64,000 nt of DNA from Dehalococcoidia bacterium. GTDB lineage: Bacteria; Chloroflexota; Dehalococcoidia; Lucifugimonadales; Australimonadaceae. The stretch is taken from the NCBI GenBank assembly GCA_965249185.1, contig CBDFLS010000002.1, positions 1,933,594 to 1,997,593 on the forward strand, given 5' to 3'. Below, piece by piece: positions 17,537-32,704 of the stretch. A program made the translations under genes and the position numbers. The notes beneath the pieces were generated by a model, which was not told the DNA's origin, did no database searches, and saw nothing but the letters and a program-made list of their open reading frames with translations. Numbering within the stretch: position 1 is the first letter of the stretch; each line of letters opens with the position of its first letter.

Positions 17537-18511
17537 ATGACTAAGACACTTATAACTGGTGGCGCTGGGTTCATCGGCTCTCATCTGTGCGATAGGCTCT
17601 TGGCGATGGGGCATGAGGTTGTTTGTCTGGATAACCTTGACCCCTTTTATGCCCCAGGGGTGAAGCTCGCAAACCTGGCCGAAGCGCGCTCAAACCCCGG
17701 CCTTGAGTTCGTCCACGGGGACGTGATGGATACCGAACTGCTTGACCGCGTATTTGCGCGCGGGCCGGAGCTGGTGATACATCTCGCGGCCCTGGCTGGC
17801 GTCCGCAACTCTTTACTGGACCCGGCCCGGTATGCGCGGGTGAATATCGAGGGGACGGTGAATCTGCTGGAGCGGGCACGGAGCCATGGTGTGGGCCGCT
17901 TCGTCTTCGCTTCCTCCTCATCGGTTTACGGACATTCCGACGGCGGGCCTCTGTCTGAAGACCACCCCGCCCTTGAGCCGGTGTCACCGTATGGTGCGTC
18001 CAAGCGAGCGGGAGAGTTAGTCTGCTGGACCTTTAATCACCTCTCCGGAATGCCCATAGCGGCACTGCGGTTCTTTACGGTCTATGGGCCGAGACAGCGG
18101 CCAGACATGGCCATCCATAAGTTTGCGAAGCTCATGCTCTCGGGTCAGCCGATTCCCGTCTACGGCGATGGCCGCTCGCGCCGGGACTATACTTACGTGG
18201 CGGATATCATAGACGGCATCGTTGCGGCGGCAGAGCATCCCGATGGCTTTCAGATCTTCAACCTCGGAAGCTCGCGGCCCGTTGAACTTTTGGAGGTGAT
18301 CCATCAACTGGGCGCCGCACTTGATGTACAGCCCGAGCTTCAATTCCTCCCAGAGCAGCCGGGCGACGTGAGGTTTACGCTGTCTGACGGCGCTCGATCG
18401 GAGCGAGTCCTCGGCTACAGGCCGCAGGCCTCCATTGAGGAGGGCATCCGCAAATTCGCCGAGTGGTTTAGGCTGCACGGGACGTCCATGGAAGGGGAGC
18501 CGAAACCATGA
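17537..18511 (+). CDS. NAD-dependent epimerase, UDP-glucuronate 4-epimerase-like
   Basis: 324 aa. TGGAGFIGSH, YGASK and RFFTVYGPRQRPDMA motifs typical of the UDP-GlcA 4-epimerase subgroup of extended SDRs. Confidence 0.8.
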   Translation: MTKTLITGGAGFIGSHLCDRLLAMGHEVVCLDNLDPFYAPGVKLANLAEARSNPGLEFVHGDVMDTELLDRVFARGPELVIHLAALAGVRNSLLDPARYARVNIEGTVNLLERARSHGVGRFVFASSSSVYGHSDGGPLSEDHPALEPVSPYGASKRAGELVCWTFNHLSGMPIAALRFFTVYGPRQRPDMAIHKFAKLMLSGQPIPVYGDGRSRRDYTYVADIIDGIVAAAEHPDGFQIFNLGSSRPVELLEVIHQLGAALDVQPELQFLPEQPGDVRFTLSDGARSERVLGYRPQASIEEGIRKFAEWFRLHGTSMEGEPKP

Positions 18512-19845
18512 AGCTCTGCGTCATAGGTGGAGCTGGCTACGTTGGCCTGATCACTGGCGTTGGCTTTGCAAAGCTCGGTCACACCGTTGTAAACTTCGAC
18601 GTGGATGCCGATAAGGTGGCGTCCCTGGCGCGAGGAACGAGCCCCATTTATGAAGTTGGCCTTCAGGAGATGCTCCAGGAGTGTCTCGATTCGGAGCGCT
18701 TGAGCTTCACGACTGATTTAGATGCGGCGGCGCGCGATGCGGAAGCGGTGTTCGTTGCCGTTGGCAGTCCCGCCGGCGAGGATGGCGGCACCGACCTTTC
18801 GCAAGTGAAGAGCGTGGTCACGTCTCTGAGCAAAGTGGCGGCGTCTCAGTCCGTTGTCGTTATCAAGTCCACCGTCCCGGCAGGGACGGTGGACTTGATC
18901 CGCGAAGAGTGGGCGCGGCGCGATGGGCGTTCGGAACTGCACCTCGTGGTAAACCCTGAGTTCTTGCGGGAGGGCCAGGGCCTGAAGGATTTCTTCTACC
19001 CCAGCCGCATTGTTGTGGGCGCCGATTCCGAGTGGGCGCGGCAGGTGATGCGCCGTCTGTACGCTCGGTTCATCGATGGACCGGACGATGGCGAGCCGGA
19101 GATTCCGATGGCCCGTGGTGTGCCCCTGATTGAGACGACGGCCGTTAACGCGCAGATAGTCAAGTACGCGGCTAACGCCTTCTTAGCCACACGGCTCTCT
19201 TTCATCAATGAGATGGCCGGAATCTGCGAGCAGGTGGGAGCGGATATCACCGAGGTGGTGAATGGGCTGGGTTACGATCCCAGGATCGGTTGGGAGTATC
19301 TCCAGGCGGGGATTGGTTTTGGGGGGCCTTGCCTGGAAAAGGACCTGAAGGCCCTTATCCATTTCTCGGGCCGCCACCAGCATGACGCCCGCTTCATGAA
19401 GGCGGTGTTGGACCGCAATGATCGTCAGGTCCAGCATATCGTGGAGAAGATAGTGGAGCTGCTCGGGCCCGAACTCTCCCAGAAGCGTGTGGCCATCCTC
19501 GGCCTCGCCTTCAAGCTGGGGACCAATGATGTCCGCACGTCGCTCTCGCTCCGCATCATGCGGATGCTGCTGGACAGGGGTTGCGTGCTGACCGCTCATG
19601 ACCCCGTGGCGCTGTCGGAGGCTCAATCCCTGCTGCCCGAAGCGCACTACAGCGATGATCTCTATCGTGCTCTGGACGGTGCGGATGCGCTGGTCCTTCT
19701 CACCGATTGGCCTGAGTATGGAGCGCTGGACCTTGAACGAATCGCAGGCTTGATGCGCCAGAAAAATGTGGTGGACGGCCGCAACATGCTGGAGCGGGGC
19801 GCACTGGAGCGTCTGGAGTTTCGGTACCGCGGCGTTGGCCGATGA
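18508..19845 (+). CDS. ugd: UDP-glucose 6-dehydrogenase
   Basis: 445 aa. VIGGAGYVGL, NPEFLREG and GFGGPCLEKD (catalytic Cys) motifs. ATGA overlap with the upstream gene. Confidence 0.9.
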   Translation: MKLCVIGGAGYVGLITGVGFAKLGHTVVNFDVDADKVASLARGTSPIYEVGLQEMLQECLDSERLSFTTDLDAAARDAEAVFVAVGSPAGEDGGTDLSQVKSVVTSLSKVAASQSVVVIKSTVPAGTVDLIREEWARRDGRSELHLVVNPEFLREGQGLKDFFYPSRIVVGADSEWARQVMRRLYARFIDGPDDGEPEIPMARGVPLIETTAVNAQIVKYAANAFLATRLSFINEMAGICEQVGADITEVVNGLGYDPRIGWEYLQAGIGFGGPCLEKDLKALIHFSGRHQHDARFMKAVLDRNDRQVQHIVEKIVELLGPELSQKRVAILGLAFKLGTNDVRTSLSLRIMRMLLDRGCVLTAHDPVALSEAQSLLPEAHYSDDLYRALDGADALVLLTDWPEYGALDLERIAGLMRQKNVVDGRNMLERGALERLEFRYRGVGR

Positions 19846-19890
19846 ATGATATGATGCGGCGCGTCTGACTGAGTGGGAGGAGAGGGACAG

Positions 19891-20976
19891 ATGGGCGAGC
19901 TTGGAGTCCTTCTGGCGGGCTTGGGCGGCTTCGGCCGAAACCACCTGCGGGCGTGGAGTGATCTCAAGATTGGGGATGCGCTGTACGTCGCCGAATTGGA
20001 CCCGGCGCTCCATGACGAGTGCCGGGTATTCAATGTTCCCTTAGACCACATATCGACTGATTTCAATCAGCTGCTCCAGAAGGTGGACGTGGTAGACATA
20101 GTCACGCCTTCCACGAGCCACTTTGCCCTGTGCAAGGCCGCCCTTGAAGCGGGGAAAGACGTCTTCGTGGAGAAGCCGATGACGATGACTTCGGAAGAGG
20201 CCCGGGAGCTGGCGTCGCTGGTGCGGCAGAGCGAGCGCGTGCTGCAGGTGGGCTACTACTACCGGTTCCATCCCATCGCGCCGGTCCTGAAGGCCGCGCT
20301 GTCGAGCGGTGAGTTGGGCGACGTGCGCTATATCTCTGGAAACTTTATGGGGTTCAAACGGGCGCGGACGGATGTGGGCGTCACGCATACGGACGCTATC
20401 CACTTCATCGACCTGTTCAACTGGCTGCTGGGCACGCCGCCAAAAGAGGTGTTCGTGGTAGCCCGCGACCACTTCAACCGAGGCCTGGAGGACTGGTCGG
20501 TGGTGCTGCTGGAGTACCCCGGTGGAACGGTGGCCAAGGTGGAGTCCGGCTATATTCAGCCCGGACGATGGAGGGATAAGGTTGTGCCGAACGCCTTCAC
20601 CTCCAAGGAGTTTTTCCTCTGCGGCACTCGTGCTACCGCAGAGGTGGACTTCGAGACGGAATATCTGGTGGTCCACGATGTGCATCACGAGTTTCAGAAC
20701 GGGACGTGGGCGCCGGTGGTGGCCGGCAGCGAGACCCGCAACACCGGCACCGCCACGCCAATTCGGATGATCGGGGCGGAGTTGCAGGACTTCCTGGAGT
20801 GCGTGCGTACTCGTCGGCGTCCCAGTGCGGACGTGGTGGGCAGCGGGGTTGTGCTGGCCCGGATCATGGAGGCGGTCTATCGGTCCGCGGAGGAGCACCT
20901 CCCGGTGTCCCTGGACTGGTCCGACGAGGAGGTACGCGCTCTGGCCGACGCCCCGGTTGGCGGTGTGCCGCGATAG
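19891..20976 (+). CDS. Gfo/Idh/MocA-family oxidoreductase
   Basis: 361 aa from the ATG preceded by GGAGGAGAGGGA. Has the GLGGFGRNH Rossmann N-terminus and EKPM motif. Confidence 0.8.
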   Translation: MGELGVLLAGLGGFGRNHLRAWSDLKIGDALYVAELDPALHDECRVFNVPLDHISTDFNQLLQKVDVVDIVTPSTSHFALCKAALEAGKDVFVEKPMTMTSEEARELASLVRQSERVLQVGYYYRFHPIAPVLKAALSSGELGDVRYISGNFMGFKRARTDVGVTHTDAIHFIDLFNWLLGTPPKEVFVVARDHFNRGLEDWSVVLLEYPGGTVAKVESGYIQPGRWRDKVVPNAFTSKEFFLCGTRATAEVDFETEYLVVHDVHHEFQNGTWAPVVAGSETRNTGTATPIRMIGAELQDFLECVRTRRRPSADVVGSGVVLARIMEAVYRSAEEHLPVSLDWSDEEVRALADAPVGGVPR

Positions 20977-21019
20977 CCTGAGGACCCGGAATAGCCTGAG
21001 GAACTCTAAGGAACGGTCC

Positions 21020-21889
21020 ATGACGCTGAAAGATATCACCGAGAACGACCTGCTCAATAACATTCCTCTAGCCGCCCGCAAGAGTGATGGGGAGCGGTCA
21101 CGGGTGAGGGTGGGCGATGCGGAGTTCGGGGGAGATCGCTTCGTGGTCATCGCCGGGCCGTGTGCCGTCGAGAGCAAAGCGCAGGTGCTGGACATCGCCC
21201 AGCACGTCAAGGAGAGCGGCGCCTCTATCCTCCGAGGCGGCGCCTTTAAGCCCCTAACGTTTCCTTACCGCAGCGAGAAGACCTTTGAGTTGGGTGCGGA
21301 GGGCCTCCGCTACTTGGCGGATGCGCGAGAGGCCAGCGGCCTTCCGGTGGTGACTGAGGTGATGGACGCTCGCGCGATCGAGCTGGTTGCCGGCTTCGCG
21401 GACATGCTCCAGGTAGGGGCCCGGAATATGCAGAATTTTCCTCTGCTGGAGGAGTTGGGGCACGTCGGCAAGCCGGTGCTGCTGAAGCGTCATTTTGGTT
21501 GTAGCGTGAGGGACTGGCTTGGCGCCGCCGAGTACATTCTTTACCACGGCAACTCACAGGTGGTGCTGTGCGAACGGGGTGTTGTCGCTCCTCACACGCA
21601 TCAGGGAACCGCAAGGTTTATCGTCGATATTCAGGCCGTGCTTGCGGTGCATGAGTTCTCGCACTTGCCGGTAATCGTGGACCCCAGCCATGCGACGTTC
21701 AGGCGCGAGTATGTGGCGCCGATTGCCCGGGCCGCCCTGGCGGCGGGGGCCGATGGCATTATTTTGGATGTTCATCCCACGCCGGAGCTAGCCGCGGTGG
21801 ACCCGCTCCAGGCGCTTTCGTACGATGCGTTCGCCCAGTTGATGTCTCAGCTCAGGGGCATTGGTACGGCCGTGGGCCGGGAGGTCTGA
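21020..21889 (+). CDS. divergent DAHP-synthase (type I-beta)/KDO8P-synthase-family aldolase
   Basis: 289 aa from ATG 21020. GPCAVES, QVGARNMQNF and VDPSHA are conserved. However, the loop reads GGAFKPLTFPY where the family has KPRTSPY, ERGVVAPH replaces ERGIRTFE, and DVH replaces EVH. Confidence 0.75.
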   Translation: MTLKDITENDLLNNIPLAARKSDGERSRVRVGDAEFGGDRFVVIAGPCAVESKAQVLDIAQHVKESGASILRGGAFKPLTFPYRSEKTFELGAEGLRYLADAREASGLPVVTEVMDARAIELVAGFADMLQVGARNMQNFPLLEELGHVGKPVLLKRHFGCSVRDWLGAAEYILYHGNSQVVLCERGVVAPHTHQGTARFIVDIQAVLAVHEFSHLPVIVDPSHATFRREYVAPIARAALAAGADGIILDVHPTPELAAVDPLQALSYDAFAQLMSQLRGIGTAVGREV

Positions 21890-21892
21890 GCG

Positions 21893-23020
21893 ATGGCGGT
21901 GCGAGGACGCGCTGGGCAGGGCGCCATAGAGATGGTGCAGCCACACTTGGACAACTCGCTGGACTCTTCAGCGAGCGCCCGTCCCATCGTAGCCGGGATC
22001 ATTGGCGACCGTCCCTCTCTTTATGCTAAGAGCCCTCTGCTCTGGAACGCGGTGTTCCGGGACCTGGGGCTGGATGCGGCATACCTGCCCTTTGACGTTT
22101 CGGCGGAGAATCTGCCGCGGCTGGTGGAGGCGCTTCGGGGGTGTGCCACCTACGTTGGAGGGAACGTGACGGTCCCCTACAAAGTACAGGTGATGGACCT
22201 CCTGGACGAAGTGGACCCGCTAGCCAGGCAGATCGGCGCGGTGAACACCATCAGCCGCACGCGGGACGGCAGGCTGGTGGGGTATAACACCGACGCCACG
22301 GGAGCGGTGGAGTCGCTGGTCAGGAGGATGTCGTGGCAGGAGTGCCCGTTCCTGAAGGGGCTCGCGGGCAAGCGTGTGCTGCTTGTTGGCGCCGGCGGCG
22401 CTGGCCGGGCGGTGGCCTTCGCCATTGCCCAGCAGGTTGGCAAAACAGGGGCTATGTGGATCACCAACCGTTCGGCGGAGCGGGCGCGGGAGCTGGCTGA
22501 AGAGGTCCGCCGTGCCTATGGAGTCGCCCAGGCCCTGAGTGAGGATGAGCTGTCCGATAAGCTCGCTGATGTCGACCTGGTGATCAATGCCTCGACGCGG
22601 GGGCAGGCGGGGGTCCGGCGGCTTCCGGGGGGCCTGGCGACCTGTTTGGAGCCCTACTCGCCGCTGGCGCCCGCGAACCCCGCCACCTTCCAAGCGGACG
22701 AGCAAGCCACGGAGGCCGACTTCTATCGCGCCTGGTACGAGGCCTCGGTGGAGGATATCCATGCCAACACGAAGGCCTCGGCAAATGCCATCCTCGGCTC
22801 CGGGCGGGAGACGGCCTACTTCGACCTCATCTATGCGCCACAGGAGACCACGCTGTTGAGGCAGGCGCGTCTCAGCGGGCGCCCCACGCTCAACGGCAAG
22901 GGCATGAACATCATTCAGGCGGTGGAGGCCTTCGTGCACAGAGTAATGAAGCCCCACCTAGGTGAGGCGGCCGATGGCGCGTACGAGCGGGTCTCGGATG
23001 CCATGGCCGGGGTGTGGTGA
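21893..23020 (+). CDS. shikimate/quinate dehydrogenase-fold protein (AroE-like, extended)
   Basis: 375 aa. NVTVPYK, GAVNT, GYNTD and GAGGAGRAV motifs. SPLLWN stands in place of SP.(M/I)HN. About 45 extra residues sit between the Rossmann core and YFDLIYAPQET. Confidence 0.75.
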   Translation: MAVRGRAGQGAIEMVQPHLDNSLDSSASARPIVAGIIGDRPSLYAKSPLLWNAVFRDLGLDAAYLPFDVSAENLPRLVEALRGCATYVGGNVTVPYKVQVMDLLDEVDPLARQIGAVNTISRTRDGRLVGYNTDATGAVESLVRRMSWQECPFLKGLAGKRVLLVGAGGAGRAVAFAIAQQVGKTGAMWITNRSAERARELAEEVRRAYGVAQALSEDELSDKLADVDLVINASTRGQAGVRRLPGGLATCLEPYSPLAPANPATFQADEQATEADFYRAWYEASVEDIHANTKASANAILGSGRETAYFDLIYAPQETTLLRQARLSGRPTLNGKGMNIIQAVEAFVHRVMKPHLGEAADGAYERVSDAMAGVW

Positions 23021-23128: not shown

Positions 23129-23893
23129 TCAATGAGCGTTGGCGTTGAATTCTACGCGGAATAGCACCCGATTTTTCTTTGCCGCATAGGGTGGTCCTAG
23201 CCAGTGCTCGTTCTCTTCCGGGACGTAAGGGTAGAACGCGAATTGGCTCGTGGCCGGCTGCTGTTCAAAGGAGCTTTGGAGCTGTTCTTTAGGAAGCAGC
23301 GTTCCTGGGCGAGAATCGGGATAAGTCTTAACGGGCTTCTTACCGTTGAGCAGGATACGGGTCTCACCCAGTAGTCGCCGTATGGGTAATCTGGATACAG
23401 CCGAAACAAACTCCTCAGGTCTATCCAGGTGATAGAGAACACCGGCACAGATAGCTATGTCCCAAGATGGTCCAGCTAGGGATGTTTCCCAATCGCTATC
23501 GTGGAAATCCAACAAGCGAAGCTCAATGAGGTGGCGCAACCCACGTTTGCGTGCTACGAAGTCGAGGCTTTTGAGGAACCGTTCGGTTCGGTCGACTGCG
23601 ACAACATGTGCCCCTCTTTTGGCCAGTTCTAGGGTCATGTAGCCATTGGCACAGCCTAGATCCAGGCAGCGGGCCCCGCTCAAATCCTCTGGGAAGTGCA
23701 GTGCCAATTGCTGCCAGAGGAAAGCGGGATAGCGATATGGGATAGGCATGAGTTGGACGCCTGGGTTGACGTTTCCGCTCTCGAAGGTAGTAACTCCGGG
23801 AACAACCTCAATGTCGTGGAACCAGGGCCCCAGCCGACGGAGGCGCCAAAGCAGAAATAGTCGCCTTAGCCTGCCCAATGTTGGTAGATTCAC
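23129..23893 (-). CDS. class I SAM-dependent methyltransferase (DUF1698/CmoB-like)
   Basis: 254 aa. WFHDIEVVPGV, CLDLGCANGY (motif I) and VLYHL motifs. Confidence 0.7.
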   Translation of the reverse strand: MNLPTLGRLRRLFLLWRLRRLGPWFHDIEVVPGVTTFESGNVNPGVQLMPIPYRYPAFLWQQLALHFPEDLSGARCLDLGCANGYMTLELAKRGAHVVAVDRTERFLKSLDFVARKRGLRHLIELRLLDFHDSDWETSLAGPSWDIAICAGVLYHLDRPEEFVSAVSRLPIRRLLGETRILLNGKKPVKTYPDSRPGTLLPKEQLQSSFEQQPATSQFAFYPYVPEENEHWLGPPYAAKKNRVLFRVEFNANAH

Positions 23894-24108: not shown

Positions 24109-24953
24109 GGGTAAAGTCCCGTTTTAGCCACCGGATTAGCTTTGAAGCAGCTTGAACAATGTCTTAACCTGTTCTGGTCCCAACAGACGCCGATGATTGT
24201 AGCGCCAGACATACTCAGCAAGATAGAGGGGCAGCCGTTCTCGGCGGACTCCCCCTTTGGCTGCCAGACGCCGCTTGAGATAACCCCAGAAGCCCTCCAA
24301 GCCGTTGACGTGGCTCCCTTGCCGATCGCTGAACGCCTGGCTGTGGTCCACAAGCCGGTGGACGTAGCCCCCCGCTGCGACGCCCGTGTAGCTGGTAAAG
24401 GTGTCCGAGCAGACGATGGAGCCACGTTGCACGCGTTGGTGCAGGAGCGGCAGCAGCGTCTTGGCTTCCACGTTAGGTACCACTTGCGCCCACACCAGGC
24501 CACCTCGACACAGGATCCCAAAGACAGCTTGCTTAGTGGTTCCACGGCCCCGCTTCGTGCCCTGAACACGCTTTGCCAGGCGCCTGTTGCGCCAGGAACC
24601 TCCCAGGTAGGTCTCGTCGACCTCCACCACGCCGGAGAAGACATGGGGAACGTCCCGGACCATGGCCTGGCGCACCACGATCAGGGCTCGCAGGACTCGC
24701 TTTCGCTCCAGGCGGGCCTCCTGGGCAATCACCTCGGCACTCTGCCCCAAGACGAACCAGCGCAACAGTCGCCGCCACTCCCCTGGCGACAACCGAAGCG
24801 GCAGCGCCCTGGGCACCCACTCGTAGTGGCAGGCTGCACAACGACTCTTACCTCGCCGAATGCTCCAGCTCTTGGCGTGTTGACATCGAGGGCACCCAAT
24901 CTTCCGTCCCATGCCACCATTCTCTCACAGGTGGCTGTTTTGGGACTATACCC
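24109..24953 (-). mobile_element. IS1595-family insertion sequence, copy 3 (845 bp)
   Basis: Same ends as copy 1. Flanks TTATTCAA (24101-24108) and TGATTCAA (24954-24961) match at 7 of 8 positions. Confidence 0.9.
24136..24912 (-). CDS. IS1595-family transposase
   Basis: 258 aa, identical in sequence to copy 1. Confidence 0.9.
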   Translation of the reverse strand: MGRKIGCPRCQHAKSWSIRRGKSRCAACHYEWVPRALPLRLSPGEWRRLLRWFVLGQSAEVIAQEARLERKRVLRALIVVRQAMVRDVPHVFSGVVEVDETYLGGSWRNRRLAKRVQGTKRGRGTTKQAVFGILCRGGLVWAQVVPNVEAKTLLPLLHQRVQRGSIVCSDTFTSYTGVAAGGYVHRLVDHSQAFSDRQGSHVNGLEGFWGYLKRRLAAKGGVRRERLPLYLAEYVWRYNHRRLLGPEQVKTLFKLLQS

Positions 24954-25089: not shown

Positions 25090-25761
25090 TTGCCGCTACA
25101 GTTATCGGTGATGCGTTCAAAGATTGAACACAATGGCGGGACTGAGAGCGACTCGTCACGGGAGATGCTCCTTCTCTCGGAGATAGAGCACGCTCCGGAG
25201 ACGAGCCAGCGCCACCTGGCGCTGCGGCTCGGGCTGTCGGTCGGCATGGTGAACCTGCTGCTTCGGAACCTGGCGCGCAAGGGCTACGTGCGCGTCACGC
25301 GAGCCGGCTGGCGGCGCTGGCTGTACGCCATGACGCCGAGCGGCGCCTCGCGCAAGGTCCAGCTTCTGGTGGGATACGTCCGCCGGTTCCTCGGCGACTA
25401 TCAGCGGGTGCGCGGAATGCTGCGAGAACAATTGGCGCCTCTCTCCCTGCACGCGGAGTCGAGAGTCGCGATCTATGGGACCGGTGAGCTTGCGGAGCTC
25501 GTTTACCTGTCGCTAAGGGAGCTCGCGGTGGAGGAGGTGGAGGTCTTCGACACGCGGAGCTCGAACGGACGGAAATTTCTGGGCTTGCCTGTGCGTGATG
25601 TGAGCACACTTCGGCCCGAGGACCATGACAGGGTGGTGATCGCCGTGCTTCCGGAGGCCTCAAGAGGCTACGAAGAGCTCCGGGCCGCGGGCGTTTCTCC
25701 GGAGCGCCTGGTTACGCTCTTCGGTGAGCGCCCGCGGAGAGATGAAGGGATAGCGCATTGA
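25090..25761 (+). CDS. EPS-associated MarR-like winged-helix regulator fused to a Rossmann-like C-terminal domain
   Basis: 223 aa (TTG start; possible later starts). The wHTH region reads SQRHLALRLGLSVGMVNLLLRNLARKGYV. The C-terminal part RVAIYGTGELAELVY...GLPVRDV...DRVVIAV resembles the N-terminal domain of EPS sugar transferases. Confidence 0.65.
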   Translation: MPLQLSVMRSKIEHNGGTESDSSREMLLLSEIEHAPETSQRHLALRLGLSVGMVNLLLRNLARKGYVRVTRAGWRRWLYAMTPSGASRKVQLLVGYVRRFLGDYQRVRGMLREQLAPLSLHAESRVAIYGTGELAELVYLSLRELAVEEVEVFDTRSSNGRKFLGLPVRDVSTLRPEDHDRVVIAVLPEASRGYEELRAAGVSPERLVTLFGERPRRDEGIAH

Positions 25762-25873: not shown

Positions 25874-26905
25874 ATGATGATTCCTGATTTCTTAGCCCGG
25901 CGGAACCCCTACGTTATCGGCGCTTTGGTGGAGAACCACGGCGGAGATGCGCAGCTTGCGCGAGACCTTATCCGTCTCGCGTCCGAAAGCGGCTGTGATG
26001 CGGTGGCACTGCGGCTGAGCACTGTAGATGATTGCTATACCGCCGACTACTTGAGACGGCCGAATACGCTGTGGCCGGAGCGGGGCCGCACCTGGGGCGA
26101 CTACTTACGCTCGTTGGAGCTCGGTCCGGGGGATGTCGGCGCGCTTCGGGATGAGGCACGGGGGCATTTGGACTTTATCGCAGCCCCCTTGGATCTGAAG
26201 GCGTTCCAGTGGTCGGAGGAGTTGGCGCCGGATGCGTTCCAGGTGGAGCCAGCGGTGCTTGGGCACTTGGCGCTCCTGGAGGCGATGGCGGCGACGCGCC
26301 GGCCGCTATTCCTGGTGTGCGGACGCTGCACTGAGCTGGAGCTGTCGAATGCCCTGGAGGCGCTCAAAGATAGTCCGGTAGTGCTGCTCCATACGGTGCA
26401 CGGGGGCGCGGTGTCGTTGAGCGAAACGGCTCTGCCGCTGATGCGAGTGCTGGAGGAGAAGCATGGACTGCCGGTGGGCTATTACGGCCTGGAGCCCGGG
26501 GTGGTGGCCGCGGCCGCGGCGCTGGCTCTCGGCGCCAAGGTGATCGAGAAGCCCTTCACTACGGACCATCGCTTGTCCGGGCCACGACACGCGAGCAGCC
26601 TGGACCGCGACGAGCTGCGCGCGCTGGTGAGCACGCTACGGGCGTTGGCCGGCTCGCTGGCCACCGATGGCCCCCGAGTCCCCTTGCCGGCCGAGCTGGG
26701 GCCGGAAGAGTCCGCGAGGGCCGCCCTGGTAGCGGGGAAGGACCTGGCCGCGGGTGAGGTGCTTCAGCCAGAGATGCTGCTGACGCGACTCGGGTCCTAT
26801 GGCATCAGCCCTCTCCTGCAAAGCCGATTGCTGGGACGACGGCTTGCATACGATGTTGTTGCCGGAGACCCGGTGACTTTCGGTGAGATGCATGCGCCGG
26901 ATTAA
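25874..26905 (+). CDS. NeuB-like (sialic/ulosonic acid synthase family) protein with SAF domain, catalytic motifs degenerate
   Basis: 343 aa. NHGGD N-terminal motif and C-terminal SAF-like LVAGKDLAAGEVL. AVALRL replaces AVKFQ, YYGLEPG replaces SDHT, and IEKPFT replaces IEKHFT. Confidence 0.7.
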   Translation: MMIPDFLARRNPYVIGALVENHGGDAQLARDLIRLASESGCDAVALRLSTVDDCYTADYLRRPNTLWPERGRTWGDYLRSLELGPGDVGALRDEARGHLDFIAAPLDLKAFQWSEELAPDAFQVEPAVLGHLALLEAMAATRRPLFLVCGRCTELELSNALEALKDSPVVLLHTVHGGAVSLSETALPLMRVLEEKHGLPVGYYGLEPGVVAAAAALALGAKVIEKPFTTDHRLSGPRHASSLDRDELRALVSTLRALAGSLATDGPRVPLPAELGPEESARAALVAGKDLAAGEVLQPEMLLTRLGSYGISPLLQSRLLGRRLAYDVVAGDPVTFGEMHAPD

Positions 26906-27014: not shown

Positions 27015-28079
27015 ATGAAAGCGCTCGTTCTCTGTGGTGGAAAGGGGACCCGGCTCCGGCCACTGACCTATGCCATCCCCAAGCAGTTGATTCCCGTGGC
27101 CAACCGGCCCATCGTTGCCTACGTGCTGGGTCACATCGTGGAAGCCGGTATCGACAATGTTGGGGTCATCGTGTCGTCGGAAACCGGCGATCAGACCCGG
27201 GAGACGATCACGCGTCTGTTCCCCCGCCTTCGGGTCACTTACATATTCCAGGAGCAACCGCTGGGCCTCGCACATACCGTAACGGTGGCGCGTTCCTACT
27301 TGGGCGATGATCCTTTCGTGATGTATCTGGGCGACAATCTCATCGGTCAGGGCATTCGAGAATTCATAGACCACTTCCAGCGCTCCTCCGCCGACGCGGT
27401 CATCCTGTTAAAAGAGGTTGGCGATCCCCGGTTGTTTGGCGTGGCCGAGGTCGATGATGGCGGGCGTGTGGTGCGCCTGGTGGAGAAGCCTGACCAGCCG
27501 CCCAGCAATCTGGCGCTGGTGGGCCTCTACGTGTTCTCACCGGCTATCCATGACGCGATCCGGCAGACGAAGCCATCCTGGCGAGGGGAGCTGGAGATAA
27601 CCGACGCGGTCCAGGTATTGCTGGAGACGGGCGGCAACGTTCAGAGCCATGTGCTTGAAGGGTGGTGGCTGGACACTGGGAAGAAGGATGATCTGTTGGC
27701 GGCGAACCGCAGGGTGCTGGACGACTGGACCGACCGTGACATACGCGGGCAGGTGGACGATGAGACGAAGGTGAAGGGGCGCGTGGTGGTGATGGACGGC
27801 GCGGTAGTCCAGGGGAGCGAGATCAGGGGGCCGGCGATCATCGGTACTGGCTCCGTGGTCACCGGCTCGACCGTGGGTCCCTATGCGAGCATCGGCGATG
27901 GTTGCGTCATCACGGACTCGTCGTTGGAATGCAGCGTCGTGCTGGATGGAGTCAGGCTCGAGGGGGTAACCCCGATACAGAATAGCGTTATCGGTCGGCA
28001 TGCCATGGTGCGGGCAAGCCATGACAAGCGCCAAGGGGTGCAGCTCATGATCGGCGACGACGCAGAGGTGCTGGTCTAA
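27015..28079 (+). CDS. rmlA: glucose-1-phosphate thymidylyltransferase, long form with C-terminal left-handed beta-helix
   Basis: 354 aa. LCGGKGTRLRPLTYAIPKQLIPV motif and hexapeptide repeats at the C-terminus. Directly followed by rmlC, rmlB and rmlD. Confidence 0.8.
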   Translation: MKALVLCGGKGTRLRPLTYAIPKQLIPVANRPIVAYVLGHIVEAGIDNVGVIVSSETGDQTRETITRLFPRLRVTYIFQEQPLGLAHTVTVARSYLGDDPFVMYLGDNLIGQGIREFIDHFQRSSADAVILLKEVGDPRLFGVAEVDDGGRVVRLVEKPDQPPSNLALVGLYVFSPAIHDAIRQTKPSWRGELEITDAVQVLLETGGNVQSHVLEGWWLDTGKKDDLLAANRRVLDDWTDRDIRGQVDDETKVKGRVVVMDGAVVQGSEIRGPAIIGTGSVVTGSTVGPYASIGDGCVITDSSLECSVVLDGVRLEGVTPIQNSVIGRHAMVRASHDKRQGVQLMIGDDAEVLV

Positions 28080-28649
28080 ATGCCGTTTGACTTCGAACGT
28101 TTATCAATTCCGGAAGTGATTCTCGTCCACCCCCGGGTGTTTGGAGACAGCAGGGGGTTCTTCCTTGAGAGTTACAAGCACTCAGACTTTGCCGGTAACG
28201 GTATCCCGGCGCAGTTTGTCCAGGACAACTACTCCCGGTCGGCCCATGCGGTCCTTCGTGGATTGCATTACCAAACGGAGCCGGCGGCGCAGGGGAAGCT
28301 GGTGATGGTGGTCTCTGGAGAGATATTCGATGTCGCGGTAGACATTCGAGACGGCTCGCCCACTTATGGGAAATGGGCGAGTGCCGTCCTCTCCGCTGAG
28401 AACCATAGGCTGCTATACGTACCCCCTGGGTTTGCCCACGGGTTCTGTGTGCTAAGCAGCACCGCCGATGTGCTGTATAAGGTCACCGGCGAGTATTCGG
28501 CAGCGCACGAGCGGGGCATACTGTGGAACGACCCGCAGATCGGCATCGATTGGCCAATTACGCAGCCGGAACTCTCCGAACGGGACAAAATGCTTCCTCT
28601 CTTGCAACAAGCGGACAACAACTTCCGCTATCGGGGCGGTGATTCGTGA
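28080..28649 (+). CDS. rmlC: dTDP-4-dehydrorhamnose 3,5-epimerase
   Basis: 189 aa. FGDSRGFFLESY, LRGLHYQ and GFAHGF motifs. Confidence 0.9.
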   Translation: MPFDFERLSIPEVILVHPRVFGDSRGFFLESYKHSDFAGNGIPAQFVQDNYSRSAHAVLRGLHYQTEPAAQGKLVMVVSGEIFDVAVDIRDGSPTYGKWASAVLSAENHRLLYVPPGFAHGFCVLSSTADVLYKVTGEYSAAHERGILWNDPQIGIDWPITQPELSERDKMLPLLQQADNNFRYRGGDS

Positions 28650-29692
28650 CCACCATTCTCGTTACCGGCGGCTGCGGCTTTATCGGGAGTCACTTTGTTG
28701 AACTGCTGCTCGGTTCGACAGATTGGCGGGTAGTGAACCTGGATAAGCTAACGTATGCGGGGAATCCCCAGAACTTGGCTGGAGTCCGGGAGAGCGAGCG
28801 ATACCGTTTTGTGAAGGGTGACATCGCAGATCGGAAGTGCGTTGAGGAGCTGTTCGATGAGGAACGCCCCGACCTTGTCGCCAACTTTGCCGCGGAGTCT
28901 CATGTGGACCGCAGCATACTGGACGCCTCAGTATTTCTTCGTACAAATGTTGAAGGGACACATACGCTGCTTGAGGCCGCCCGTAAGCACAAGGCGCGCC
29001 GTTTCCTCCAGGTCTCAACCGACGAGGTCTATGGGGATATCGAAGGTAAGGAATCGTGCCGAGAGGATGCGTCGTTGTTGCCGAGCAGCCCTTACGCCGC
29101 CAGCAAGGCCGCCGCCGACCTGTTGGCCTTAGCGTATCAGCGAACCCACGACGTGCCGCTGTTGATCAGCCGGAGTTCGAATGTCTATGGCCCTCGGCAG
29201 TTCCCAGAGAAGTTGATACCTTTATTGATAAGGAAAGCGCTAGCCGGTGAGGCGCTTCCGATCTATGGAGATGGCGAGCAAAAGCGACATTGGCTTTACG
29301 TTACAGACAACTGCCGTGCGCTGTTGGCGTTGATGGCGGCTGATGGTCTGGAGGGAATCTATAACGTGGGCCACGATGAACAGCGCTCCAATCTGGAGAT
29401 CGTCCAGCTGGTGTGCGCCGCGCTGAGCAAAGAGACTGGGCTGAGGGAGGACCAATTTACGAACCTGGTCACGCTTGTCGCCGACAGGCCCGGTCACGAT
29501 CGTCGATATGCCATGGATTCGACAAAAGTGGCGCGGGAGACCGGCTGGGCTCCGACGACGAGTTTTGACGCAGGGCTCACGGCTACGGTGCGGTGGTATC
29601 TTGCCAACCCATCCTGGGCAGAGGGCGCCATGACGGGGGAGAACCGTCAGTTCTTTGACAAGGTGTATAACCGAAGGTGGGAAAATTCCTAA
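28646..29692 (+). CDS. rmlB: dTDP-glucose 4,6-dehydratase
   Basis: 348 aa. TGGCGFIGSH, STDEVYG, YAASKAA and DRPGHDRRYA motifs. Confidence 0.9.
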   Translation: MTTILVTGGCGFIGSHFVELLLGSTDWRVVNLDKLTYAGNPQNLAGVRESERYRFVKGDIADRKCVEELFDEERPDLVANFAAESHVDRSILDASVFLRTNVEGTHTLLEAARKHKARRFLQVSTDEVYGDIEGKESCREDASLLPSSPYAASKAAADLLALAYQRTHDVPLLISRSSNVYGPRQFPEKLIPLLIRKALAGEALPIYGDGEQKRHWLYVTDNCRALLALMAADGLEGIYNVGHDEQRSNLEIVQLVCAALSKETGLREDQFTNLVTLVADRPGHDRRYAMDSTKVARETGWAPTTSFDAGLTATVRWYLANPSWAEGAMTGENRQFFDKVYNRRWENS

Positions 29693-29693
29693 T

Positions 29694-30557
29694 ATGATGA
29701 AAGTCGCAGTCGTCGGCTGCACGGGCCAGCTCGGGACAGACCTCGTCAAGGTTCTCACGGCGGGAGGGGAGCATTCTGTGGTCCCCATAAGTCATGAGGA
29801 GGTGGACTGCACTGACTCGGAAGCAACTCGAAGAGCGCTTGGTGATGCCGCGCCTGATGCGGTGGTCAACTGCGCCGCCTTTGTGCGCGTGGATGATTGT
29901 GAGGACCACCCCGAAGAGGCGTTAGCCATCAACGTCCTTGGCTCGTTGAATGTCGCGCGCGCCTGTGCGGAGAGCGGAACACTTTGCGTCTACGTGAGCA
30001 CTGATTACGTTTTTGATGGCGGGAAAGGCTCTGCATACACGGAGCGGGATACTCCGCTGCCGATTAATGTCTATGGGACATCCAAGCTGGCAGGGGAGTA
30101 CATGGTGCGGCAGGCGGCCAAGGATTGGCTGATCGTGCGCACCTCCAGCCTCTTCGGCATCACGGGAGCTCGGGGCAAGGGCGGCAATTTCATCGAGACG
30201 ATTCTCTCTCGCGCTCGGGCTGGTCAGCCGCTGAATGTTATCGACGATATTCGCATGTCGCCGACCTATACGGTTGATGCGGCTCAAGCGCTTGCGCGGC
30301 TCATTTCGGATGGGACAACGGGTGTGGTGCATGTGGCTAACAAGGGCACATGCTCCTGGTATGAGCTTGCCAAAGCGGCGGTGGAGCGGGTGGGGATTCC
30401 CGTGGATGTGGCCCCGGTGCCGGCTTCCACCTATCCGTCCAAGGCACAACGCCCGAGGGATTCATCGCTGGCGAGCGATCGGCTGTCCGCCGGAGATACA
30501 CCTCGGCTGTGGCGGGAGGCGCTAGAGGCGTACCTACGCGAGAAGGGGCATATCTAG
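29694..30557 (+). CDS. rmlD: dTDP-4-dehydrorhamnose reductase
   Basis: 287 aa from the ATG 1 nt after the rmlB stop. GCTGQLG, STDYVFDG and YGTSKLAGE motifs. Confidence 0.85.
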   Translation: MMKVAVVGCTGQLGTDLVKVLTAGGEHSVVPISHEEVDCTDSEATRRALGDAAPDAVVNCAAFVRVDDCEDHPEEALAINVLGSLNVARACAESGTLCVYVSTDYVFDGGKGSAYTERDTPLPINVYGTSKLAGEYMVRQAAKDWLIVRTSSLFGITGARGKGGNFIETILSRARAGQPLNVIDDIRMSPTYTVDAAQALARLISDGTTGVVHVANKGTCSWYELAKAAVERVGIPVDVAPVPASTYPSKAQRPRDSSLASDRLSAGDTPRLWREALEAYLREKGHI

Positions 30558-30604: not shown

Positions 30605-31285
30605 GTGCTTTCAGTCGTCCTTAGAACAAAGAACGAATCGCAGTGGATCGGGCGCTGTCTCAGCGCTCTCTCCGCGCAGAACTATCCGGCGGTTGAGATC
30701 ATCGTGGTGGACAATCAGTCCGTGGATGGGACGCTGGACATCATCGGCCGGTACGATTGCAAGGTGCTGAGCATTAGCGATAAGGACTTTACGTTTGGCC
30801 GGTCCCTCAACTTGGGGATACGGGAGTCATCGGGGGAGTATGTGGCTATTCTCTCGGGCCATTGCATCCCCGTGGATGACCAGTGGCTGAGTATGCTGCG
30901 AGCGGGGTTCCTCGATGAGTCCGTTGCCGGCGTCTATGGGCGCCAGTTGCCGTTGCCGGATACCTCTCCCTATGACAAGCGGGACTTGTGGACCACGTTC
31001 GGTATTGAGCAAAGGGTGCAGCATCAAGACTTCTTCTTTCACAATGCCAACTCCATAATCCGCCGCGCAGTGTGGGAGGAGATACCCTTTGACGAGGAGA
31101 TCGCCGGAGTTGAGGACAGGGAGTGGGCGAAAGAGGTCATCAGATGCGGGTATCAGATCGTGTATCAGCCGTTGGCAAGCGTCTTCCACTACCATGGCAT
31201 TCATCACGGGCGCAACGAGGAACGCTCGACGCGAGTCGCCAAGGTGATTGAGCTTATTCAGCAGCGAGGCCGCTCGCATGCCTAA
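30605..31285 (+). CDS. family 2 glycosyltransferase (GT-A)
   Basis: About 226 aa from GTG 30605 (the track ORF starts at 30509). Has LSVVLRTKNES...VVDNQSVDGT and an EDREWA motif. The stop overlaps the next ATG (ATGCCTAA). Confidence 0.75.
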   Translation: MLSVVLRTKNESQWIGRCLSALSAQNYPAVEIIVVDNQSVDGTLDIIGRYDCKVLSISDKDFTFGRSLNLGIRESSGEYVAILSGHCIPVDDQWLSMLRAGFLDESVAGVYGRQLPLPDTSPYDKRDLWTTFGIEQRVQHQDFFFHNANSIIRRAVWEEIPFDEEIAGVEDREWAKEVIRCGYQIVYQPLASVFHYHGIHHGRNEERSTRVAKVIELIQQRGRSHA

Positions 31286-31988
31286 CGATCTCCACGTGGT
31301 CTCCATTATTCCCGCCAGGGGGGGCTCCAAAGGCATTCCGAGAAAGAATGTGCGTGTCGTTGGTGGGAAGCCGCTGGTCGCTTGGAGTGTCGAAGCATCG
31401 CTGAAGTGCGCGCTCATCGACCGAACGATCGTCTCCACCGACGATGAGGAGATTGCGGGAGTGGCCCGTGAGTATGGGGCGGAGGTGCCCTTTATGCGGC
31501 CCGCTGAGCTCGCCGCGGACCGGGCCGGCACCGAGGGTGTCCTGCAGCACGCGGTGGACTGGCTGGAGCAGAAGGATGGGTACCGGGTTGATATTCTCGT
31601 CTTTCTTCAGCCGACGGATATATTTCGCAAGCAGAGCTGGGTGGGGGAAGTGGTCCAGGCCCTCATGGATGATCCGGGTTTGGAATCGTGCTTTGTGGGG
31701 TATGAGACCTACAAGAACTTCTGGCAGGTCCGTGATGGAGCGTTTGTCCCGTTGAGCCATCGGGGCTACGGGCCTCGGCAGACCAAGTCGAGCGTTATTC
31801 GGGAGGACACGGGGCTCGCGTGTGCCTCCAGAGCTGAAGTTATCAAGGCGGGCAAGCGGGTCGGCGATAGGGTGAAGATCATCCTCACCGATGAGTTTGC
31901 CTGCGGGATCGATGTGCAGTACCCCTTTGACCTCTTCCTAGCGGAGAAGGTGATCACTGAGTGGGGGCTTAAGCCGAATTGGGACTGA
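31278..31988 (+). CDS. CMP-sugar synthetase (acylneuraminate/KDO cytidylyltransferase family)
   Basis: 236 aa. Canonical IIPARGGSKGIPRKN signature, followed by GKPLVAWSVEA. Confidence 0.85.
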   Translation: MPNDLHVVSIIPARGGSKGIPRKNVRVVGGKPLVAWSVEASLKCALIDRTIVSTDDEEIAGVAREYGAEVPFMRPAELAADRAGTEGVLQHAVDWLEQKDGYRVDILVFLQPTDIFRKQSWVGEVVQALMDDPGLESCFVGYETYKNFWQVRDGAFVPLSHRGYGPRQTKSSVIREDTGLACASRAEVIKAGKRVGDRVKIILTDEFACGIDVQYPFDLFLAEKVITEWGLKPNWD

Positions 31989-32011
31989 AGAGGGAGGGTC
32001 GGTTCATCGAT

Positions 32012-32704
32012 ATGCGAGTCCTAGCGATTATTGCGGTCCGCAGCTGCGACGGCGAGGTGAATGGCAGCCCCGTTGTGCTTTCGAACAAGCCGCTGTTGGC
32101 GTACGCGGTTGAAGCATCATTGGCGAGTGAGTCCGTGGACCGAACAGTGGTCACGACGGATAGCCCGTCGCTGCGGGACCTGGCCGTCGGTCTAGGGGCG
32201 GAGGCACCCTTCCTGAGACCCGCCGAGCTGGCGGCGCCGGGAGTGGGGCTGAATGAAGTCCTGCAACATTGTCTGGCGTGGCTCGAAATCAACGACGATT
32301 ATCTACCGGACATCGTTGTTTGCCTGGAGGTGTCCCATCCCCTGCGGCCAGAAGGGCTCATCGATCAGGTGGTTGGGGTTTTGGAGGACAACCAGTTGGA
32401 CACGGCGTTCACTGTGTACGAAGAGCGGCACGCATTCTGGCAACTGGACCCGTACGGTGAGCCGCACCGGGTCGGAAGCGAAGAGATGGGGGCTAGAAGC
32501 GGCGCTCAGCCGTTATATCGCGAAGTTGCCGGCCTCGTGTTGGCCTGCCGTGCGGACCTCATCCGCCAGGCGAAGCGTGTTGGAGACAACGTAGCCATTG
32601 TGCCTATTCACGAAGCCTACGCTTTGGTAGATACCCAGGACCCCCTCGGCCTGGTGTTGGCTGAGCACATACTGAGTCGGGGCGGTCTCATCTCAAGCAA
32701 CTGA
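32012..32704 (+). CDS. cytidylyltransferase-family paralog with degenerate nucleotide-binding signature
   Basis: 230 aa, alignable by eye to the upstream paralog (PFLRPAELAA, VLQHCLAWLE). The signature loop reads IIAVRSCDGEVNGSPVVLSNKPLL instead of IIPARGGSKGIPRKN. Confidence 0.75.
   Translation: MRVLAIIAVRSCDGEVNGSPVVLSNKPLLAYAVEASLASESVDRTVVTTDSPSLRDLAVGLGAEAPFLRPAELAAPGVGLNEVLQHCLAWLEINDDYLPDIVVCLEVSHPLRPEGLIDQVVGVLEDNQLDTAFTVYEERHAFWQLDPYGEPHRVGSEEMGARSGAQPLYREVAGLVLACRADLIRQAKRVGDNVAIVPIHEAYALVDTQDPLGLVLAEHILSRGGLISSN

Follow-up and report, generated by a model that had tools for sequence, protein, structure and literature searches.

The closest described relatives of the protein analysed here are the nonulosonic-acid synthases NeuB, PseI, LegI and SpsE (solved structures 1XUU, 8H2C and 1VLI), which combine a TIM barrel (PF03102) with a SAF domain (PF08666). 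In true NeuB, the SAF domain shuts over an active site next to it and makes contact with the sugar, and the roles of the PEP-binding residues were reportedly set out by Gunawan and co-workers in 2005. That a TIM-barrel synthase which uses PEP can lose its metal site has a precedent in the sister family of KDO8P synthases, whose class I (metal-independent) members keep the Lys/Arg network that binds PEP and stay active. The SAF domain is also said to have had a career of its own, since sialic acid synthase reportedly gave rise, through its SAF domain, to the type III antifreeze proteins (work by Deng and colleagues, PNAS, 2010).

In the 64,000-nucleotide stretch of DNA from a Dehalococcoidia bacterium analysed here (the window), a gene encodes a NeuB-like protein that has lost both metal-binding histidines. 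This protein is probably a dead NeuB descendant kept as a SAF-bearing accessory of a GT2-like enzyme in a cassette for a CMP-ulosonic acid. A full-text literature search found no description of the His-less NeuB clade or of the cassette, and both are apparently undescribed so far. Unknown higher-carbon CMP-ulosonic acids have been reported in Magnetospirillum (SugarBase preprint), with no link drawn to these genes.

The NeuB-like gene and its predicted structure

The gene and its parts are as follows.

25874-26905, plus strand: His-less NeuB-like protein with TIM barrel and SAF domain (open reading frame and translation, Pfam, AF2, Foldseek)
25907-26659, plus strand: degenerate TIM-barrel part, residues 12-262 (active-site column entropy)
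26717-26893, plus strand: SAF (AFP-like) domain, residues 282-340 (entropy, clade-specific motif)

The initial annotation described an intact gene with an ordinary start and a NeuB layout ending in a SAF-like domain, and proposed Pfam profiles and a structural superposition as checks; both agree with that description. The open reading frame starts with ATG and encodes 343 amino acids without internal stops. The NeuB profile PF03102 matched residues 32-261 with 120.3 bits (cut-off 22.1) and the SAF profile PF08666 residues 284-335 with 24.3 bits (cut-off 21), both above the gathering thresholds. The AF2 model (pLDDT 91.1, pTM 0.81) found PseI 8h2c and NeuB 1xuu as top Foldseek matches (TM 0.77-0.81, E ~1e-25). 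In the predicted fold, a TIM barrel precedes a beta-clip domain of the SAF/AFP-like type, which resembles the arrangement in the solved NeuB and PseI structures.

Besides this architecture and its length, the protein shares with the known synthases the structural Gly/Ala positions, the E234-K dipeptide, the NH and LLH motifs and the presence of CMP-sugar cytidylyltransferases in the locus. However, it falls far below the NCBIfam equivalog cut-offs, with 141.4 bits versus 399.65 for TIGR03569 (NeuB) and 109.2 bits versus 340.25 for TIGR03586 (PseI). Its SAF motif RLAYD..GDPVTFG occupies residues 323-337 (nucleotides 26840-26884), where the window protein reads RLAYDVVAGDPVTFG, and it fits the clade pattern [YF]D ... 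P[ILV]TFG. A promoter and terminator scan around the gene returned nothing exceeding shuffled expectation.

Loss of the catalytic residues

The motifs ENHGGD, AVALRL, VGYYGLEPG and IEKPFT were all found as first quoted. Their register was checked by HMMER pairwise alignment to the PDB entries PseI 8h2c, 6ncs and SpsE 1vli, by a clade profile against N. meningitidis NeuB (NmNeuB, 1xuu/4ipi) and by a MAFFT alignment of 168 sequences. The three independent alignments gave one common register, which rules out a register shift that would restore the His or Lys residues. The initial annotation had named such a shift, or a failure to score as NeuB, as what would overturn it; no realignment brings back His or Lys/Ser, and the NeuB-family score is clear.

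In NmNeuB numbering, the metal ligands H215 and H236 are replaced by L206 and P227 in all three alignments, as the first reading of the sequence had proposed. The PEP contacts are also lost (K53 to A45, K129 to Q123, S132 to P126, S154 to V148 and S213 to Y204), together with the sugar contacts and other residues (Q55 to R47, E25 to A17, Y186 to G178, D247 to R238 and, in the SAF domain, R314 to L306). The sole residue kept among those contacts is E234, which corresponds to E225. The roles of the metal, PEP and sugar residues of NeuB are described in PMC11339185. H215, H236, K129, S132 and E234 are 100% conserved among 129 canonical representatives, and the lost metal, PEP and sugar residues are ~100% conserved in 126-129 canonical relatives; the replacements are therefore far outside the normal variation of the family. 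Since the metal and PEP sites are both gone, the protein would be expected to bind neither metal nor PEP and not to perform the PEP-aldose condensation, a conclusion that we hold to be probable jointly with the accessory role as a whole. The earlier doubt about canonical PEP condensation is thus extended from the histidines to nearly every residue that binds PEP or sugar.

It could be argued that the protein is still a nonulosonic-acid synthase that works without metal, in the manner of the class I KDO8P synthases, and some deep members of its clade do retain K53 and Q55 (AVKFQKR), while three retain H215. Nevertheless, the class I enzymes keep their PEP site, whereas the window protein lacks the contacts to the PEP phosphate and carboxylate (all five listed above) and, among the sugar contacts, Q55, Y186, D247 and R314. 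Moreover, another, dedicated condensing enzyme was always present in the cassette loci examined. A metal-free synthase is thus extremely improbable.

Gene context

The remaining features of the locus are the following.

18508-20976, plus strand: UDP-sugar 6-dehydrogenase and Gfo/Idh/MocA oxidoreductase, upstream cassette members (gene order as in loci L002, L003 and L005)
21020-21889, plus strand: DAHP-synthase-like (DAHPS-like, type I-beta) paralogue (Pfam, NCBIfam)
21893-23020, plus strand: long shikimate-dehydrogenase-like (SDH-like) oxidoreductase, kept beside the condensing enzyme in the cassette
23129-23893, minus strand: methyltransferase, between the SDH-like and NeuB-like genes
24136-24912, minus strand: IS1595 transposase, in the same interval
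25090-25761, plus strand: wHTH (MarR_EPS-like) regulator with a C-terminal Rossmann-like domain, cassette-associated
27015-30557, plus strand: rmlA/rmlC/rmlB/rmlD block, between the NeuB-like and GT2-like genes (rmlA-like by Pfam)
30605-31285, plus strand: GT2-like protein with DxD replaced by S-G-H-C, of which S, H and C are invariant (Pfam GT2, chondroitin synthase alignment)
31278-31988, plus strand: CTP_transf_3 cytidylyltransferase, PseF/KdsB-like (Pfam 74 bits; NCBIfam PseF 127 bits, below cut-off)
31979-32704, plus strand: second, degenerate cytidylyltransferase paralogue, CT' (Pfam 33.8 bits only)

Judging from the orthologous loci, the gene is part of a conserved cassette, not recognised in the initial annotation, that the IS1595 and rml insertions have split in the window. 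The SDH-like and NeuB-like genes abut in those loci, the rml block is absent at that position in all foreign loci, and the window locus is IS-ridden.

The DAHPS-like protein (Pfam 202.7 bits on the longer frame 20825-21889; above the NCBIfam cut-off for DAHP synthase) is presumed to be the PEP-condensing enzyme of the cassette, and the genome also has, at another place, a separate housekeeping copy that scores better. The window NeuB-like protein would accordingly be neither the sole nor the likely condensing enzyme of its locus, which sets it apart from the known synthases. The cytidylyltransferase at 31278-31988 is presumed to be an active CMP-sugar synthetase, and CT' is 32% identical (E 4e-17) to a C-terminal domain fused to a GT2-like protein in the relative G002. 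The condensing enzyme beside this module differs between loci: it is DAHPS-like in the window, a DHDPS-family aldolase in L023 and L024, and a canonical His-bearing NeuB in L027. Thus, the condensing enzyme is interchangeable, and the NeuB-like/SAF, GT2-like and CT' proteins form the constant core. This defines how a widespread, apparently undescribed ulosonic-acid cassette is built and indicates which proteins to co-express.

With its UDP-sugar dehydrogenase, Gfo oxidoreductase, DAHPS-like and SDH-like enzymes, two cytidylyltransferases and methyltransferase, the cassette would most likely make, tailor and CMP-activate a novel 3-deoxy-2-ulosonic acid for surface glycans. In Nitrospira, it lies inside an apparent flagellin-glycosylation island. 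No recognised phosphatase was found in the cassette. A heterodimer with a canonical NeuB paralogue, an arrangement that does occur in L027, is ruled out here, as no second NeuB was found in the source genome (96% complete).

The initial annotation had also placed the gene next to an EPS regulator, and the MarR_EPS-like gene does lie directly upstream. Its identity is 50% to the regulator at the head of the L003 locus and 29% to that at the head of the Nitrospira cassette. This position, together with the dead site, the selection and the cassette linkage on which the accessory role also rests, could suit a non-catalytic ligand sensor, whose barrel or SAF domain would bind the product or CMP-sugar and modulate the DAHPS-like, cytidylyltransferase or GT2-like enzyme or the wHTH regulator. 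However, this adjacency is confined to the window with its rearrangement; in other loci the regulator stands at the head of the cassette, several genes before the NeuB-like one. In addition, the natural fusions described below join the NeuB remnant to the GT2-like protein in particular; neither the regulator nor the DAHPS-like enzyme is the fusion partner. A sensor function is consequently considered quite improbable.

A clade under shifted constraint

Among the best 150 representatives of one search, on which the clade statistics are based, the His-less sequences form a single clade (~34 rows, SH-aLRT 96) apart from 130 canonical rows. The window protein is nested in it: its 9-row subclade has an SH-aLRT of 99 and belongs to a group of 19 rows (97), itself part of the 34-row clade (96). 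A profile scan of genome contigs with a 7-sequence alignment returned 4 loci.

In the same 150 representatives, the 16 former active-site positions have an entropy of 2.29 in the clade versus 2.14 overall (p=0.52); in canonical NeuB, these positions have 0.37 versus 2.05 overall (p=6e-9). The former active-site positions are thus as free to vary in the clade as average ones. The constraint has moved to the C-terminal SAF domain: in the clade, its entropy is 1.84 bits versus 2.14 for the barrel, and in canonical NeuB the order is reversed (2.17 versus 1.77). The C-terminal 20 residues show the same shift (1.54 in the clade versus 2.36 in canonical NeuB). Conservation of Y326, D327, T335, F336 and G337 stands at 85-94% in the clade versus 21-52% in canonical NeuB, and the residues conserved in the clade are otherwise almost all structural Gly/Ala/Leu positions common to canonical NeuB. 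The known synthases therefore differ from the clade in their constrained active-site columns; in the clade, conservation is highest in the SAF domain.

The dN/dS estimate proposed in the initial annotation was obtained for intra-genus orthologue pairs other than the window gene, with values of 0.11-0.17 (L019/L022) and ~0.12 (L020/L021), and the orthologues are under purifying selection. Because the best relative of the window gene is just 51% identical, with dS saturated, selection on this copy is judged solely through its orthologues. A decaying former neuB that has simply stayed undisrupted would fit the IS-ridden locus and the divergence of the gene, since 5/5 locus comparisons rank the NeuB-like protein as the cassette member that has diverged most (31-51% identity, against 68-71% for DAHPS, 59-70% for GT2 and 55-75% for CT). 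Nevertheless, such a functionless relic is very unlikely given the low dN/dS of the orthologues, the intact gene in Chloroflexota, Nitrospira and other lineages, and the SAF motif conserved across phyla and in fusions.

Another reading is that the barrel has acquired a new, metal-independent activity on the ulosonic acid or a precursor (isomerase, epimerase, dehydratase or phosphatase-like), in which case adjacency to the GT2-like gene would reflect consecutive steps and not a complex. The window protein retains E225-K226, H22, H173 and Y203, and around the old pocket its closest subclade still has some polar residues (Q123, E/D125, Y203, E225, K226, D231 and H239), which could be a new catalytic or ligand site. 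The purifying selection, the confident fold of the full barrel and the cassette without a recognised phosphatase also agree with this reading. Against it stand the average variability, across the clade, of the positions that correspond to the NeuB active site, the structural nature of nearly all clade-conserved residues, the rank of the NeuB-like protein as the fastest-evolving protein of the cassette, and several lineages that still have SAF::GT2 but whose barrel carries an internal deletion or is missing. A neofunctionalised enzyme is therefore regarded as unlikely, though it is the alternative that we take most seriously.

A full, confidently folding barrel (pLDDT 91) is kept in many lineages, a feature that is not fully explained by a function of the SAF domain alone.

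Annotation pipelines would name this protein an "N-acetylneuraminate synthase family protein", and surveys would then take it as a sign that Chloroflexota, Nitrospira and further uncultured lineages make sialic, legionaminic or pseudaminic acid; for the His-less clade, such an inference is wrong. Absence of both His, the SAF motif [YF]D..P[ILV]TFG and a GT2(SGHC) neighbour together provide a sequence test for the clade that would clean censuses of nonulosonic acids.

The proposed GT2-like partner and natural fusions

The GT2-like protein starts at a GTG (30605) with GGAG upstream and is 50-69% identical across 8 loci; in the alignment to chondroitin synthase, DCD stands opposite its SGH. Its gene is directly downstream of the NeuB-like gene in 13/13 foreign loci, often with a 4-bp overlap. 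In the window, the orthologue is on the same strand, 3.7 kb downstream and past the rml block, a separation by which translational coupling of the two genes has been lost. Among 60 relatives, close adjacent GT2-like orthologues (65-70% identity) occur in exactly the four genomes with a NeuB-like orthologue; in five further genomes, the GT2-like homologues are more distant, fused and located next to canonical NeuB clusters. Regarding these data, the GT2-like protein is the likely partner of the NeuB-like protein, and a physical interaction between them may be proposed.

The preferred explanation is that the NeuB-type synthase lost catalysis and kept its TIM-barrel and SAF fold, that condensation would be supplied by the DAHPS-like paralogue, and that the NeuB-like protein would be retained as a partner of the GT2-like enzyme and probably of CT' too. 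By analogy with true NeuB, the SAF domain (RLAYD..PVTFG) would be the working part, serving as a lid or as a substrate-presenting or stabilising element for the GT2-like enzyme, and the barrel could be mainly a structural or dimerisation body. This agrees with the pseudoenzyme or repurposed scaffold suggested initially, with the single clade, the purifying selection, the unconstrained active site, the conserved SAF domain, the second condensing enzyme and the GT2 fusions all pointing the same way.

A more specific version, which we advance tentatively and consider rather doubtful, is a "fossil metabolon", where the former NeuB (as SAF lid) and the former cytidylyltransferase CT' would present the substrate to the His-type (SGHC), DxD-less GT-A enzyme, which would tailor or transfer the novel CMP-ulosonic acid made by the synthase derived from DAHP synthase. 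If so, the separate genes and the full, half-barrel and SAF-only fusions would be snapshots of a stepwise conversion from enzyme to accessory.

The natural fusions are of three types: full NeuB-like::GT2 (about 540-553 aa), half-barrel and SAF::GT2 (about 440-470 aa) and SAF-only::GT2 (335-337 aa). The SAF motif is kept in all of them, SAF-only included, as the barrel motifs vanish, and the three types form a series of progressive barrel decay. This series would be a clear natural example of a pseudoenzyme retained for its non-catalytic domain. The SAF-only fusions parallel the type III antifreeze proteins, in which SAF is likewise independent of a dispensable catalytic barrel; those proteins, however, are eukaryotic, secreted and ice-binding, whereas the SAF domain of the clade stays cytoplasmic and tied to sugar metabolism.

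The dead-NeuB::GT2 fusions P0291, P0301 and P0318 share with the window the SAF motif RL[AL][YF]D..P[ILV]TFG, the same GT2-like partner and the loss of the NeuB catalytic residues. They differ in that the window parts are separate, no longer adjacent genes and that fewer of the ancestral barrel motifs (NH, LLH and EK) survive in the fused forms than in the window protein. GT2::CTP_transf_3 fusions are also very common. In a single-chain AF2 prediction, one NeuB-like::GT2 fusion gave a compact fold (pTM 0.79).

Fold and catalytic residues of the NeuB-like protein

The NeuB-like protein is encoded by an intact ORF:

25874-26905 (+): NeuB-like ORF, ATG start, 343 codons

Its Pfam matches are NeuB (PF03102, 120 bits over residues 32-261) and SAF (PF08666, 24 bits over residues 284-335), and its NCBIfam equivalog scores are about one third of the cut-offs (NeuB, 141 vs 400 bits; PseI, 109 vs 340 bits). 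AlphaFold2, with a 16-sequence alignment as input, modelled it confidently as a TIM barrel plus a SAF domain (pLDDT 91.1, pTM 0.81). The top structural matches of this model were C. jejuni PseI (8h2c) and N. meningitidis NeuB (1xuu), with TM values of 0.77-0.81; DAHP and KDO8P synthases ranked next.

The roles of the NeuB active-site residues are summarised, with an offset numbering, in PMC11339185. The register was checked in three independent alignments (pairwise HMMER to PseI, 6ncs and SpsE; the clade profile against NmNeuB 1xuu/4ipi; a 168-sequence MAFFT alignment), and a single register was common to all of them. In NmNeuB numbering, the replaced residues are the metal ligands (H215 to L206, H236 to P227), the PEP contacts (K53 to A45, K129 to Q123, S132 to P126, S154 to V148, S213 to Y204), the sugar contacts (Q55 to R47, Y186 to G178, D247 to R238, R314 to L306) and also E25 (to A17). 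The sole survivor among these active-site residues is E234, which corresponds to E225, and H215, H236, K129, S132 and E234 are 100% conserved in 129 canonical representatives. The roles assigned to the active-site residues by Gunawan et al. 2005 are reportedly the same. The initial annotation had described the loss of both metal-binding histidines and of the PEP-binding AVKFQ motif, which is confirmed here in every detail. It had also considered canonical PEP condensation unlikely and, with metal, PEP and sugar contacts all replaced, this reaction is very probably beyond the capability of the protein. That it could be a metal-independent synthase is hardly credible.

A His-less clade under purifying selection

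An exhaustive HMMER search over 1.84 billion representatives was carried out, and its 150 best matches were analysed; about 39 of them lack one or both histidines. A maximum-likelihood tree built from 164 sequences places 34 His-deficient ones (31 with no ligand histidine, three with one) in one clade (SH-aLRT 96) apart from 130 canonical sequences, and the protein of the window falls in a 9-member subclade with a support of 99. No description of this clade was found in the full-text literature searched. Within the same family, orthologues are patchy, being present in 4/60 sampled relative genomes from two genera (43-51% identity).

The dN/dS values of intra-genus orthologue pairs were 0.11-0.17 (dS 0.65-0.91) and ~0.12, and therefore the family is under purifying selection; this evidence comes from the orthologue pairs, the window copy having no close relative. 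A functionless relic is thus a very improbable explanation of the gene.

Regarding where this constraint lies, column entropies were compared at 16 counterparts of NeuB active-site positions. These are near-invariant in canonical sequences (mean of 0.37 bits vs 2.05 overall, p=6e-9), whereas in the His-less clade they vary like any other (2.29 vs 2.14, p=0.52). The residues conserved in the clade are nearly all structural Gly/Ala/Leu positions also found in true synthases, with the exception of a clade-specific C-terminal SAF motif, RLAYD..PVTFG (Y326, D327, T335, F336 and G337). Moreover, the domain pattern is inverted: the barrel is more conserved than the SAF domain in canonical NeuB (1.77 vs 2.17 bits), whereas the SAF domain is more conserved in the His-less clade (1.84 vs 2.14 bits), with 1.54 bits for its last 20 residues.

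Gene cassette in other genomes and in the window

The NeuB-like gene is found within a conserved cassette in seven foreign loci (L002, L003, L005, L025, L036, L038 and L039), in the order (UDP-sugar dehydrogenase), Gfo/Idh/MocA oxidoreductase, DAHP-synthase-like (DAHPS-like), long shikimate-dehydrogenase-like (SDH-like), NeuB-like, GT2-like, cytidylyltransferase (CT), its degenerate paralogue (CT') and methyltransferase. In five orthologous cassettes, NeuB-like was always the most divergent member (31-51% identity), compared with 68-71% for DAHPS-like, 59-70% for GT2 and 55-75% for CT; CT' and SDH-like are among the next most divergent. All the cassette genes are present and intact in the window, but the cassette is split. 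The elements concerned are:

14343-15146 and 24109-24912 (same orientation): near-identical IS1595 copies, bracketing a block that runs from sat through the methyltransferase gene
25090-25761: MarR_EPS-like wHTH regulator with a C-terminal Rossmann-like domain, adjoining the NeuB-like gene
27015-30557: complete rmlA-rmlC-rmlB-rmlD block, placed precisely at the NeuB-like/GT2-like junction

The second IS1595 copy splits the cassette and, together with a methyltransferase gene and the regulator, separates SDH-like from NeuB-like. The two copies are 100% identical over their first 300 nt, their transposases differ by 1-2 residues, and the pair resembles a composite transposon around the bracketed block. 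At all other loci NeuB-like and GT2-like are contiguous or overlapping, and the rml block seems to have entered the module recently. The neighbouring EPS regulator, already pointed out in the initial annotation, is itself cassette-associated: its counterparts heading the L003 and Nitrospira cassettes share 50% and 29% identity with it, respectively. No other NeuB was found in this genome. A second, better-scoring DAHP synthase is encoded elsewhere in it, which makes the one in the cassette an additional paralogue.

Genomic association with the GT2-like gene

Two further genes of the module lie downstream of the rml block:

30605-31285 (+): GT2-like protein, with S-G-H-C where GT-A enzymes carry DxD
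31979-32704 (+): CT', second cytidylyltransferase paralogue, weak match (33.8 bits)

In 13/13 foreign loci examined, a GT2-like gene (223-237 aa) is located immediately 3' of NeuB-like, often with a 4-bp overlap, and its product is the best-conserved module member (50-69% identity across distant lineages). Among the 60 relatives, the genomes with a close orthologue (65-70% identity) coincide with the four that bear NeuB-like, and the two genes adjoin; more distant, fused homologues occur in five further genomes. Conversely, loci L023/L024 (8319-12466) present a DHDPS/NAL-family aldolase in place of the DAHPS-like gene, followed by a CT::methyltransferase fusion and a GT30 gene (Kdo-transferase family, PF04413), and in L027 the His-less gene is immediately preceded by one for a canonical NeuB with both histidines (P0169). 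Hence, the condensing enzyme is interchangeable and the NeuB-like/GT2 pair is not. Furthermore, L033 (3697-6050; G002, same family) encodes a canonical NeuB with both histidines (KFQKR / YSGHE type) followed by a 438-aa GT2-like::CT'-like fusion, so the NeuB/GT2-like/CT' association extends beyond the His-less clade; this contig also bears a second complete NeuB, 2-epimerase and CT set.

Fusions were searched for with a concatenated query, its GT2 portion serving as the seed, and a length filter that left out stand-alone GT2 proteins; four classes were revealed: full NeuB-like::GT2 (~540-553 aa, e.g. P0291, P0301 and P0318), half-barrel plus SAF::GT2 (~440-470 aa), SAF-only::GT2 (335-337 aa, P0296 and P0290) and the very numerous GT2::CTP_transf_3. 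Erosion of the barrel goes further in the fusions (NH, K53, K129, LLH, H215, E234 and H236 are all lost), with internal deletions in some, and the SAF motif RLL[YF]D..EP[IL]TFG is kept, abutting the GT2 domain. One full fusion folds with a pTM of 0.79 in AlphaFold2.

Possible function

The initial annotation had proposed a pseudoenzyme or repurposed scaffold, and the His-less clade, its dN/dS, the unconstrained pocket, the SAF conservation and the GT2 fusions speak in favour of this. The reading we find likeliest, with some reserve, is that this former synthase is no longer active and persists as an accessory to the GT2-like enzyme, its function residing in the SAF domain. In true NeuB, the SAF domain closes over the active site of the neighbouring subunit; here it could serve the GT2-like enzyme analogously, and the barrel would be retained mainly as a structural body. 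The main rival is that the barrel has gained a new catalytic activity, which is rather unlikely considering that the pocket positions are unconstrained and that SAF-only::GT2 fusions dispense with the barrel.

An undescribed ulosonic acid is probably synthesised and CMP-activated by the cassette, which in this Dehalococcoidia genome is part of a cell-envelope polysaccharide locus. In Nitrospira sp. Kam-Ns4a (L038, 4984-17210), the full cassette is beside fliW, a PilZ gene and an HD-GYP protein gene, and is followed by a 1174-aa methyltransferase-TPR-MptE/Maf-like (PF01973) protein; this arrangement suggests a flagellin-glycosylation island, where the sugar would decorate flagellin.

CT' seems to be another pseudoenzyme of the module, and fusion of its homologues to the GT2-like protein is common. 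Concerning the GT2-like protein, S, H and C of S-G-H-C are invariant across eight aligned loci, and there is an invariant HxHG near the C-terminus; these motifs may form a His-based metal site or belong to a metal-independent enzyme using a CMP-sugar. With >1000 clusters at 90% identity, this unnamed family is a large one. In L034 (10279-12162, G037), a 627-aa protein combines a GT2-like homologue with a zinc-type medium-chain alcohol dehydrogenase, which adds a further fusion partner and ties the GT2-like domain to redox tailoring. Also encoded in this cluster are a SAF-less NeuB, two cytidylyltransferases, a carbamoyltransferase and a radical-SAM enzyme.
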